Assembly: GCF_048403405.1 (NCBI RefSeq)
Contig: NZ_CP183129.1
DNA length: 64,000 nucleotides
Strand: one strand, 5' to 3'
Origin: Escherichia coli
Lineage (GTDB): Bacteria; Pseudomonadota; Gammaproteobacteria; Enterobacterales; Enterobacteriaceae
Below are positions 1 to 3,107 of the stretch, piece by piece. The notes beneath the pieces are model-generated. The model ran no database searches and was not told the DNA's origin. It worked only from the letters and a program-made list of their open reading frames with translations. The position numbers and the translations under genes are program-made. The number at the start of each line of letters is the position of its first letter. Position 1 is the stretch's first letter.

Positions 1-1569
1 CAATTTGCGCTAGATGCAATATATAGCATTGGAGGAGGTACACTACAGTTTTCACTACCAGGCATATATACTTTGCTTTCTGAGTTGCAAATAAAATCAA
101 ATACTCACCTAAAGATGACTGATGGCGTAACCATTAAACGTAATTTTTCTAATGACGTCATGCTGAGAATAAGCCCTAATACTGGCACTAACATTAAAAT
201 AACAGGCGGAATACTAGATGGAGGAGGACAAGACCACCCTACAGATCCTTTTGACATCATTGCAGCCTCCTCACCAAGAAATCTTTCTATTGTTGGAGTA
301 ACATTTCTTGATGTAGTCGATTTTCATGCTGTAGATATTGCTGACGGGCAAGGGGTGATTATAAGAGACTGTAAGTTTCTTGGCTTCAAACCACTTTCCA
401 ACCGAAATTATTCAGAAGCGATCCAGTTAGATCCGGGGATTGAATCTCTTGGCGATTATTACCCAAACATCAATGTTCTTGTTGATAACTGTTATTTTGG
501 TTCAAATCCACAAAATACCACCACTGGGTTTGGGGCGTGGGGGGCGGGGGTTGGGAACCATGCTAATTCATATGGGAATCAGGACAAAAATATAAGGGTC
601 ATAAACTGCAGGTTCGATGGAATGCTCTTTGCCGGGGTAAGGGTTTTCAACTGGTATGATTGGGTGGTTAGCGGATGCTCTTTCTATAACAGTACCGCGC
701 GAGGAGTTCATGTAACCCCATTCCCATCATCATCAAAACCACAGGGGGCAAGGAGGGGGCGCATTGTTGGCAATTATTTTGAAGGCGTTAGATCCCCGAT
801 TCTTCTGGCTGCACCTACATATCCATATACAGATACATCAGATGCATTTCATGAAGATATCGTAATATCCAACAATTCCATGTTTATTACAGAGTCTCAA
901 TCATATGCAGTAGACGCAAGATGGGTTTCAGGACTAACTGTCACTGGAAACACAGCAAGAGGCGGAATCGGTTTTTTCAAAGGTGATTTTATTAACAAAT
1001 CAATCATCTCTAATAATGAATACGATTCAGGAACATCAAGTTCTTTATGGATTTCTGAAACTAATGCAGAAGAATTTATAGGGTCTGGTTTTTCGCATGA
1101 TGTTGTAATTTCTAGCAACATCTTTAGAAATATTTCCCTGCATGGGATTCATATTAATGGTAAATATTCAAATGTTACTATTCAATCAAACATTATAGTT
1201 GGGGTTTCTACCGCAGATAATAACCATAATGGCATACGAATTGACTCTGGTGCAGAAAATGTAATTGTTAGTTCAAATCAAATTCGTGATGGCGTTGCAA
1301 ATAATAAACCATTAGTTGGTATATTTGCTACATCAAGCTGTAAGAGCGTGTCATTTATAGGGAATGTTTCATTTGGAACATCAGCCACACAGAATAATCA
1401 AGCTACAGATAAAAGCTCACTTGTGATATTTGGGCAAGAAGGCAACCCAACATCTAGCGGAGTTGGAGCACCAGTTGGTTCTATTTACACTCGTTCTGAT
1501 GGAGGTGGAAATACAGTACTTTATATAAAGGAAAGCAACACAAATGCTACAGGTTGGGTTAATAAGTAA
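1..1569 (+). CDS. Right-handed beta-helix (pectate-lyase fold) protein, probable phage tailspike/depolymerase, 5' end outside window
   Basis: Frame 1 is open from nt 1 with no stop before 1569, so the TTG at 73 is only the first in-window start. Product has repeated beta-helix rungs (VISSNIFRNISLHGIHING, NVTIQSNIIVGV, NVIVSSNQIRDG). Confidence 0.6.
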   Translation, partial: QFALDAIYSIGGGTLQFSLPGIYTLLSELQIKSNTHLKMTDGVTIKRNFSNDVMLRISPNTGTNIKITGGILDGGGQDHPTDPFDIIAASSPRNLSIVGVTFLDVVDFHAVDIADGQGVIIRDCKFLGFKPLSNRNYSEAIQLDPGIESLGDYYPNINVLVDNCYFGSNPQNTTTGFGAWGAGVGNHANSYGNQDKNIRVINCRFDGMLFAGVRVFNWYDWVVSGCSFYNSTARGVHVTPFPSSSKPQGARRGRIVGNYFEGVRSPILLAAPTYPYTDTSDAFHEDIVISNNSMFITESQSYAVDARWVSGLTVTGNTARGGIGFFKGDFINKSIISNNEYDSGTSSSLWISETNAEEFIGSGFSHDVVISSNIFRNISLHGIHINGKYSNVTIQSNIIVGVSTADNNHNGIRIDSGAENVIVSSNQIRDGVANNKPLVGIFATSSCKSVSFIGNVSFGTSATQNNQATDKSSLVIFGQEGNPTSSGVGAPVGSIYTRSDGGGNTVLYIKESNTNATGWVNK

Positions 1570-1657
1570 AACCAGCATTTAAATACAATATATATCATAA
1601 AACTTACATAATAGTTATAACTATAATTCTTGCTTAAGAATTTATAAAAACTGAAAC

Positions 1658-1693
1658 ACACAAAGCTTTGCACTGGATTGCAAGGCTTTGTGT
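1658..1693 (-). terminator. Hairpin between convergent tailspike-like and integrase genes
   Basis: Imperfect 14-bp stem ACACAAAGC(T)TTGCA...TGCAA(G)GCTTTGTGT, with a T-rich tract on the minus-strand side downstream of the integrase stop. Confidence 0.45.
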
Positions 1694-1713
1694 TATTCGA
1701 TAGTTAATGCAGA

Positions 1714-2907
1714 TCACTCCACCTTTTCATCAAGCCAGTCCGCCCACCACTGCATCATTTCTCTGCGCTTATCGAGATACTGAGCATGGTTGTAAATTCC
1801 ACGTACAGATCCGCCGTTGGCATGTGCCAGTTGCACTTCAATGGCGTCGGCAGGCCATTCGTGCTCGTTCATAATCGTGCTGAATTCATGCCTGAATCCG
1901 TGACCGCTTTCCAGACCTTCATAGCCGATTTGTTTGATCACAAGTAGCACCGCGTTCTCGCAGATTGGCTTCTTCTTATCGTTGCGCCCGGAAAAAACAA
2001 ACTCTGATACTGGTTTAGTGATTGAGCTTAGTGTAGTGAGAAGTTCAACCACCTGGTCTGACATCGGGACAACATGAATTTTGCGTCCCTTCATCACACT
2101 GGCGTCGATGGTGATAATCCTGTTTTCAAAATCGACGTTCTTCCATAGCATGGAACGAAGCTCTTTTGTTCTTAGGGCTGTGTAGCGTAAAACTTTGGTC
2201 GCAATGAGCGATACGATACTTCCTGAAAATGTTGCAAGTGCTTTGTTGAATGCCGAGATCTGGTCGGCAGGTAAAAACGGGAAGTTCTTCTTGCGGTATC
2301 CCTTCATGGCGTCAGCAAGGTCAGGTGCCGGGTTATATTTAGCCCTACCAGTGACAATAGCGTAACGGAAAACCTCGCCGCATCTTCTGCGGGCTTTGTT
2401 GGCTCGCTCCATTGCACCGCGATCTTCAAATCTGCGGATTACTTCCAGCAGTTGCATCGGCTCAATATCCTGAATTTCAAGGCCGCCGATGATAGGTAAA
2501 ATGTCGTCATCAAACATTTTTGCAAGTTCAGTTGCATAGCCTACTGACCAGACTTGCTTCTTGTGCTCGTACCATTCCTTGTAAATCGCACTAAAGGAAT
2601 TGTTGTTAGACGAAGCCTTTTTCGCTTTTACCGGATCGATGCCAACCGAGATGTCTTTCCTCGCGGTCCATGCCTTATCCCTTGCCTCCTGCAAAGTCAT
2701 AAGCGGATATTTTCCGACGGTCAGGATTTTCTCCTTACCGTCAATCTTGTAGCGAAGCTGCCATACCTTTTTCCCTGATACAGGGACATAAAGGTACAGG
2801 CCATTACCATCGAGTAGGCGGTATGGTTTTTCTTTCGGCTTTGCTGCTTCAATCTGCTTAACGGTGAGCATGGGTAAAAATCCGGTGGGTAAAATTATTT
2901 TATCCAC
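1714..2907 (-). CDS. P4-family tyrosine integrase
   Basis: 397-aa ORF (MDKIILPTGF...) with C-terminal HGFRHEF catalytic-region motif, oriented away from the 3' end of tRNA-Arg like K-12 intS. Confidence 0.9.
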   Translation of the reverse strand: MDKIILPTGFLPMLTVKQIEAAKPKEKPYRLLDGNGLYLYVPVSGKKVWQLRYKIDGKEKILTVGKYPLMTLQEARDKAWTARKDISVGIDPVKAKKASSNNNSFSAIYKEWYEHKKQVWSVGYATELAKMFDDDILPIIGGLEIQDIEPMQLLEVIRRFEDRGAMERANKARRRCGEVFRYAIVTGRAKYNPAPDLADAMKGYRKKNFPFLPADQISAFNKALATFSGSIVSLIATKVLRYTALRTKELRSMLWKNVDFENRIITIDASVMKGRKIHVVPMSDQVVELLTTLSSITKPVSEFVFSGRNDKKKPICENAVLLVIKQIGYEGLESGHGFRHEFSTIMNEHEWPADAIEVQLAHANGGSVRGIYNHAQYLDKRREMMQWWADWLDEKVE

Positions 2908-3032
2908 TTTTTACCCGTCATGGAGTGCGGCTGTCAACGATCTGACGCGAACCATTACGAACTGTTAATCTACGGAAGGCTTGATATTCAGGGGATTTTG
3001 CGGACTGGTGCGGATGGGAGCGAACTGATAAA

Positions 3033-3107
3033 TGGTGTCCCCTGCAGGAATCGAACCTGCAATTAGCCCTTAGGAGGAGCTCGTTATATCCATTTAACTA
3101 AGAGGAC
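3033..3107 (-). tRNA. argW: tRNA-Arg (anticodon CCU)
   Basis: 75-nt cloverleaf read on the minus strand: 7-bp acceptor stem GTCCTCT/AGGGGAC, anticodon loop CTCCTAA, T-arm GGTTCGATTCC, CCA end at 3033. Confidence 0.9.

Follow-up and report, generated by a model that had tools for sequence, protein, structure and literature searches.

The argW end of a P22-like prophage in Escherichia coli carries a beta-helix tailspike that most likely targets the K2 capsule

Introduction

In this article, we focus on one end of a prophage inserted at the argW tRNA gene of Escherichia coli, and particularly on the tailspike that it encodes. The sequence analysed is a stretch of 64,000 nt (RefSeq assembly GCF_048403405.1, contig NZ_CP183129.1), which we call the window at its full length. 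The feature under study occupies positions 1-3107 of it, where a tailspike gene faces the integrase gene intS, itself located next to argW.

Several elements that use this site have been described. KplE1 (CPS-53), HK620 and Sf6 share an IntS-TorI module that targets argW, and CUS-3, a P22-like prophage of the K1 strain RS218, is found at the same place. In KplE1, the intS promoter and the binding sites of IntS and TorI lie inside attL, IntS and TorI both repress intS, and the excisionase gene is located at the opposite end of the prophage (PMC2951348). In the phages of this group that were compared, the slot between the tailspike and integrase genes is taken by genes that modify a surface polysaccharide: oac in Sf6, an O-antigen modification gene in HK620, gtrABC in HF4s, and the capsule O-acetyltransferase gene neuO in CUS-3. 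In K-12, gtrABS follow intS in KplE1. The tailspikes themselves also differ in their targets, those of Sf6 and HK620 cutting O-antigens, while that of CUS-3 is an endosialidase aimed at the K1 capsule.

The window resembles CUS-3 in the argW site, the 16-bp core, an integrase gene that is 97.3% identical at the DNA level, and the order attL-int-(spacer)-tailspike, with the tailspike convergent on the integrase. The tailspike would also be aimed, as in CUS-3, at a group-2 capsule and not at an O-antigen, if the K2 target proposed below is correct. Two differences stand out. The receptor-binding domain of the window is unrelated in sequence to the K1 endosialidase, and where CUS-3 carries neuO, the window has a 144-bp spacer that holds no polysaccharide-modifying gene and only a terminator hairpin. 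With the module of KplE1, HK620 and Sf6, the window shares the argW target, the core, an integrase gene at 95-97% nucleotide identity, and the position of int beside attL, read away from the tRNA; the excisionase gene at the opposite end is seen in the related prophage of strain 4993, described below. HK620 and Sf6 are nevertheless unlike the window in their modification gene, and their O-antigen tailspikes are unlike the K2 reading that we favor.

This reading, to which we give a probability of about 62%, is that window 1-3107 is the attL (integrase-proximal) end of a temperate podovirus that is P22-like, falls in the CUS-3/HK620/Sf6 group and is inserted in the 3' end of argW, and that its beta-helix most likely recognises, and probably depolymerises, the K2 capsule. 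The integration module and the phage type are known already, and the locus adds nothing new on integration. Indeed, the architecture is a textbook one, in which the argW/IntS module accompanies a P22-like phage with a swappable tailspike, and it will not surprise phage specialists. The interest of the locus lies in a specific and testable prediction, namely that a 522-residue beta-helix, to date encountered in prophages alone, should attach to the K2 capsule and probably strip it. This is relevant to capsule biology in extraintestinal pathogenic E. coli (ExPEC), as K2 is the capsule of CFT073-type strains of sequence type (ST) 73 and of a sizeable sub-lineage of ST131.

The tailspike and its relatives

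The tailspike reading frame (window 1-1569, plus strand) is open in frame +1 from the first base up to a stop codon at 1567-1569, and it runs off the left edge of the window, so that only the C-terminal 522 codons and the stop are visible. They correspond to residues 171-692 of a 692-aa protein whose N-terminal head-binding domain lies outside the window. In the full-length relatives, which differ from the window by 2-6 aa in the shared part, this domain is recognised at residues 1-115 as the P22/Sf6 head-binding domain PF09008 (E 1e-44 to 1e-78); WP_050011445 and WP_048256737 include the N-terminal part. The part present in the window matches Pfam Beta_helix (E 1.9e-11) and PHROG 2234, 'tail spike protein' (E 6e-56), and AlphaFold2, using an alignment of 24 sequences, predicts a right-handed beta-helix with a mean pLDDT of 93.8. 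Residues H109, D112, E139, D144 and H187 are conserved in that alignment. The GC content of the tailspike region is 35-44%, versus about 50% in the flanking chromosome. The N-terminal domain would plug into the P22-type tail, and the beta-helix would be the exchangeable receptor-binding module.

An earlier note, made from the sequence alone, had described a beta-helix tailspike-like gene convergent on the integrase and had proposed structure prediction and homology as a check, and both analyses agree with that description. The same note envisaged that the frame might instead belong to a housekeeping polysaccharide pathway of the chromosome. Bacterial epimerases, lyases and adhesins do share the beta-helix fold; however, every close copy of this gene sits in a prophage, right after the ejection-protein and arc/ant genes, and comes with the P22 head-binding domain. 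In particular, in three relatives at three different insertion sites, it closes the series of late genes, behind the ejection proteins and immI (arc/ant). The frame is, moreover, absent from the otherwise identical chromosome of strain MS 69-1. The chance of a chromosomal pathway gene is thus negligible, and the gene is a phage tailspike.

To place this protein among its relatives, we used a set of 5426 complete E. coli genomes, to which the source genome does not belong, and 50,697 phage records. With a threshold of at least 80% coverage, the receptor-binding domain is found in 23 of the 5426 genomes, at up to 99.7% identity, while none of the isolated phages in the 50,697 records matches it above 48.6% identity. 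The ranking of the phage records begins with the tailspikes of lytic phages of the genus Vectrevirus (K1-5-like Autographiviridae) and continues with Bacillus SPO1-like tail spikes at about 28-30%. The closest receptor-binding domains from isolated phages are those of the Vectrevirus phages LL11, KMB47 and 6948, with 47-49% identity over all 522 residues; a shared specificity can therefore not be assumed. These tailspikes are also unlike that of the window in that an N-terminal adaptor, PF18668, replaces the P22 head-binding domain. A large protein database places a Rahnella prophage protein (61%) and metagenomic proteins next in line, and NCBIfam has no model for the tailspike.

The closest solved structure is that of PfbA from Streptococcus pneumoniae (PDB 3ZPP, 4MR0), a cell-wall-anchored bacterial adhesin rather than a virion protein, whose entry has no depolymerase activity attached to it. 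The transfer of a specificity from known structures was dropped. Apart from the PfbA match, the stretch 316-452 of the beta-helix profile (window about 950-1360) matches GH110 alpha-1,3-galactosidases (8YK1-3) with an E value of about 1e-18.

The K2 capsule as the probable target

The evidence on the target comes from the genomes that carry the domain. A kps region 2 of the CFT073 type is present in 140 of the 5426 genomes (2.6%), and it is present in all of the 23 carriers, an overlap established from a spread sample together with a ranked list queried with the 4993 locus. Conversely, the tailspike domain is found in none of the 5286 non-K2 genomes. Under a random draw, the hypergeometric P of 23 out of 23 would be 4.5e-38, a figure that is overstated as the carriers are not independent. 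CFT073 has a K2 capsule, which is associated with the ksl genes (PMC12488582).

The carriers have their prophages at no fewer than three insertion sites: argW, sbcB-dacD (strain AZ146) and ybhB-bio (the canine strain 317, where the domain is found at 98.7% nucleotide identity in a prophage beside ybhB/bio). About four lysogenisations can be counted in this way, one at argW and one at sbcB-dacD in ST131, one at ybhB/bio in 317, and one at argW in the lineage of the window. Strain 317 has a group-2 kps locus; its region 2 shares 98.3% identity with the same region in the K2 reference strain, CFT073, and encodes a cytidylyltransferase-like protein, a TPR protein, a CDP-glycerol glycerophosphotransferase-family protein (from a gene of 3.8 kb) and an XcbB/CpsF protein. 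In the lineage of the window, MS 69-1 and 4621, which are near-identical twins of the source strain, have a K2-type locus.

At two of these sites, in AZ146 (locus L003, about 7570-7780) and in 317 (locus L017, 13714-13797), the sequence behind the tailspike consists of the same spacer and hairpin and of 60-95 bp left over from the 3' end of intS. Evidently, an argW-type phage was the source from which the tailspike cassette was copied, and the downstream boundary of the copy fell inside intS.

By default, a tailspike of the P22-like kind would be expected to recognise an O-antigen, like those of P22, Sf6 and HK620. O25b would be the obvious candidate, since ST131 O25b:H4 strains make up, or seem to make up, most of the carriers (three labelled records, and an O25 flippase cluster in 4993 and AZ146). 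O25b was indeed our first guess, from the ST131 enrichment, but we dropped it because strain 317 has the domain in an O6 background, shown by its O6 cluster, and because the lineage of the window (MS 69-1, 4621, TUM1226, OX030728) has a third O cluster, with another wzy type. In MS 69-1, this cluster is damaged by an IS1 that disrupts the O-antigen flippase, which makes an O-antigen receptor unlikely in that lineage. Furthermore, most ST131 O25b genomes do not have the domain, whereas every carrier is K2. We consequently consider an O-antigen target to be very unlikely.

The association with K2 might also have arisen secondarily, from common descent or from another trait of these ExPEC lineages, and the receptor might then be another glycan, such as the lipopolysaccharide core, the enterobacterial common antigen or colanic acid, or else a protein. 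The small number of independent lysogenisations speaks in favor of this explanation, as does the fact that K2 is enriched in ExPEC lineages, which are themselves heavily sequenced. However, one uncommon capsule is found in three backgrounds that are unrelated and have three different O types, and the carriers that a widely shared receptor predicts among the non-K2 genomes are not there; this is the distribution that a capsule-specific tailspike predicts. A K2 target also agrees with the nearest whole-phage relative, since CUS-3 is itself capsule-specific, for K1. An incidental association is thus a rather unlikely explanation.

From these observations, the tailspike is probably specific for the K2 capsule and would be the K2 counterpart of the K1 endosialidase of CUS-3. 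The suggestion of the earlier note that the specificity of the tailspike would indicate a polysaccharide target on the cell surface has been a productive one, with the carrier association indicating most likely the K2 capsule rather than an O-antigen. The beta-helix module would bind the K2 polymer, its predicted receptor, and it would act as a putative depolymerase rather than as a binder only; the clearing of this group-2 capsule would then give the virion access to the outer membrane.

Several points weigh against this reading. The tailspike gene is cut by the edge of the window, and the remaining prophage, attR and torI lie outside it. The capsule locus of the source strain is outside the window too, and its K type is taken from the two near-identical strains MS 69-1 and 4621. 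As for the 23 carriers, about 21 of them appear to be ST131 (three records are labelled as such, AZ146 is assigned through the same O25 cluster, and the others through identical kps loci), and the true statistical weight of the association is far below what the P value conveys, because it is the lysogenisations that count and they number about four. Finally, no characterised depolymerase is close enough for its specificity to be transferred, no sequence homology to a characterised E. coli capsule depolymerase was found, and the closest solved structure, PfbA, is an adhesin according to its description.

The receptor-binding domain is uncharacterised, and its assignment to K2 is new as far as could be found. 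A review-style list of the E. coli K types with known phage depolymerases, published in 2025, omits K2 (PMC12488582). Within the literature searched, the coverage of which is incomplete, we found no description of a K2 tailspike or depolymerase, and no receptor information for the Vectrevirus homologues (LL11, KMB47, 101101UKE1 and others). KMB47, whose tailspike is 48% identical, was isolated on CFT073, an O6:K2 strain. It is tentatively possible that, for the E. coli K2 capsule, this is the first receptor-binding or depolymerase module to be identified; it is carried on temperate CUS-3-like phages, and its family possibly acts on polyol-phosphate polymers. That beta-helix family also takes in tail spikes from phages of Gram-positive bacteria, Bacillus SPO1-like phages among them, as well as the pneumococcal PfbA, and an action on teichoic-acid-like polymers is therefore possible.

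The ksl genes of CFT073-type kps loci make the K2 capsule, a polymer that contains glycerol-phosphate, and the genes of the locus support this content. With the galactose-containing repeat structure assumed here for K2, the putative enzyme might in that case attack a galactosyl-glycerol or a phosphodiester bond rather than an ordinary sugar-sugar bond. If the prediction is true, a K2 depolymerase would be both a typing reagent and a candidate anti-virulence enzyme. More generally, prophage tailspikes can be assigned to capsule types through their association with carrier genomes, as done for Klebsiella.

Some genomes of this group have IS1 insertions in their surface-polysaccharide genes. In 4621, a twin of the source strain that has no prophage, an IS1 lies inside the large K2 glycerophosphotransferase gene (locus L026, 18118-22695), and in MS 69-1, also a prophage-free twin, the IS1 of the O-antigen flippase is found at L005 26169-28558. 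Two further K2 genomes, OZ547143 and S1-KEN-05-A, have an IS1 in region 2. This damage could come from phage pressure or from ordinary capsule loss. The glycerophosphotransferase gene also appears split in MS 69-1, but this may be an assembly error, since the two assemblies of NCTC86 differ at the same place.

The prophage and its completeness

The phage type is indicated by both phage genes visible in the window and by the genomes that share their arrangement. Among phages, the DNA that spans the terminator, intS and the core has counterparts at 95-97% identity in several P22-like phages, namely CUS-3 (97.3%), Sf6 (97.1%), HK620 (95.6%), Kapi1, HF4s, N7 and IME10, and it also matches an Stx2 phage. 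The junction of tailspike, intS and argW, on the other hand, is found in only two of the 5426 genomes, those of the ST131 strains 4993 and MB1159, at 97.8% identity. Both of them carry a full P22-like prophage of about 40 kb that extends from torI/xis to the tailspike. In 4993, the order of the genes is torI, recT, N, cI/cro/cII, the replication genes, the nin genes, Q, holin/endolysin, terminase, portal, scaffold, a P22-type capsid, gp4, gp10, the needle, three ejection proteins, arc/ant and the 692-aa tailspike. The structural genes are 95.9% identical to those of CUS-3 over 89% of their length.

The earlier note had supposed a degraded prophage or satellite, and this supposition finds no support, as both visible genes are intact and the relatives with the same junction are full prophages. 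We nevertheless weighed whether the element might be a decayed remnant or a satellite of which the int-tailspike end survives, as in KplE1. It is true that only 3 kb of the element lie in the window, that the argW of K-12 holds a cryptic remnant (PMC2951348), and that a P4-like satellite adjoins the prophage of 4993. However, in addition to the intact genes and to the full phage present in both same-junction genomes, the tailspike of the window is only 2-6 aa away from copies in complete prophages, and its integrase is of the phage type, unlike that of the neighboring satellite in 4993. No P4-like satellite genes, such as those for a primase/helicase, Ogr/Delta, or capsid-size or Psu-like functions, stand beside the integrase in the window, where its neighbor is the tailspike and where nothing satellite-like is present. 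A remnant or satellite is thus quite unlikely, and the prophage, unlike the KplE1 remnant, is probably complete in the source genome, judging from its relatives.

As for the satellite of 4993, it lies beyond the far att site (L004 1-9300), in tandem with the P22-like prophage at argW. It encodes a P2-family capsid protein, an Icd-like protein, a DUF927 primase, Ogr/Delta, sce7725/sce7726 and an integrase of its own.

The integrase, its terminator and the attachment site

The earlier note had recognised an integrase of the P4 type at argW, with a gene content unlike that of K-12; the former is confirmed, as a tRNA-associated integrase with Arm-DNA-bind_3, by ARAGORN and by the Pfam domains, and the latter by the spacer, which is too short for gtrABS. 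The tRNA gene, argW, is a tRNA-Arg(CCU) on the minus strand (3033-3107). It serves as the integration target, is annotated as tRNA-Arg in the relatives, and is the only tRNA that ARAGORN finds in the window. The integrase frame (1714-2907, minus strand) contains the domains Arm-DNA-bind_3, Phage_int_M and Phage_integrase (PF13356, PF22022, PF00589; E 2e-25 to 2e-38) and matches the integrase family PHROG 1. Whereas the mechanical reading frame reaches a GTG at 2907, the start is likely the ATG at 2871, as annotated in relatives, which gives a tyrosine integrase of 385 aa encoded at 1714-2871. It differs from the IntS of 4993 by six amino acids.

The tailspike gene (plus strand) and intS (minus strand) converge across the 144-bp spacer (1570-1713), in which no fitting reading frame is found. 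On the 3' side of the intS stop codon, direct RNA folding reveals a stem-loop followed by a U-run (1653-1698, minus strand), with a dG of -22.3 kcal/mol, a z of -5.1 and none of 200 shuffled sequences equally stable. This hairpin is the intrinsic terminator of intS, and it may act in both directions. A segment at 1647-1700 is conserved 3' of intS in K-12 and in many other strains. A scan for consensus promoters and terminators returned no more sites than in shuffled sequence and missed the hairpin, because its stem is long and interrupted.

Between the start of intS and the core, the attL arm (2872-3031, minus strand) derives from the phage and belongs to the int module that the related phages have in common. 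Its orientation and spacing fit an intS promoter located inside attL. The same scan, with no excess over shuffled sequence, gives one weak match there, a -35/-10-like pair at 2921-2894 (minus strand) that is defined by consensus only. The 16-bp core itself, ATGGTGTCCCCTGCAG (3032-3047), overlaps the 3' end of argW and matches exactly what the Sf6 record annotates as attP core and the CUS-3 record as attL core. In strain 4993, a second copy of the core is found about 40 kb away, beside torI (locus L004, 9436).

The chromosomal side can be read from MS 69-1: over 19,976 bp, a single mismatch and a single gap separate it from the chromosomal part of the window (99.99% identity). Its argW is empty, with an OmpH-family gene and the autotransporter gene UpaE on its other side, and the identity with the window breaks at 3025/3026. 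Because of this break, and because the core is shared with Sf6, with CUS-3 and with the far end of the 4993 prophage, we assign positions 1-3031 to phage DNA, 3032-3047 to the crossover core and the remainder to the chromosome.

By analogy with KplE1 and HK620, integration would be mediated by IntS and excision would depend on TorI. IntS would have carried out recombination between the phage attP and the 16-bp core of argW, phage sequence restoring the tRNA. The intS gene, directly behind the tRNA, would then be read from a promoter inside attL, as in KplE1. The partner excisionase TorI/Xis would lie at the far end of the prophage, at a distance of about 40 kb and outside the window.

A second exact 16-mer of argW, GGAATCGAACCTGCAA, is made up of the last base of the core and the next 15 bases of the tRNA. 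It is found at L004 9745-9760 in the 4993 prophage, at L007 5621-5636 in Sf6 and at L006 5664-5679 in HF4s, that is, 309 bp from the att core and beyond the torI/xis gene, in a prophage as well as in free phages. The excisionase gene seems to be embedded in an old and longer region of homology to the tRNA.

The exact 385-aa IntS of the window is encoded on 23 contigs, and the six places examined among them (loci L010-L015) all have prophages of other types at argW. Its neighbors there include a myovirus-like element (baseplate J, sheath initiator and an acyltransferase-3 gene) and a lambdoid siphovirus (GpJ tail tip, Lom). The int/att module is one that moves between phage types.

Variation in the neighboring chromosome

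Another variable place lies farther into the window, between mlaA and fadL. A reading frame of 429 aa (5346-6635, minus strand), with a GC content of about 32% and an acidic stretch of (Asp-Ile)n repeats, is found at the position of yfdF in K-12. It is absent in the ST131 strain 4993, where mlaA abuts fadL, and in other strains it is either 352 aa long or split.

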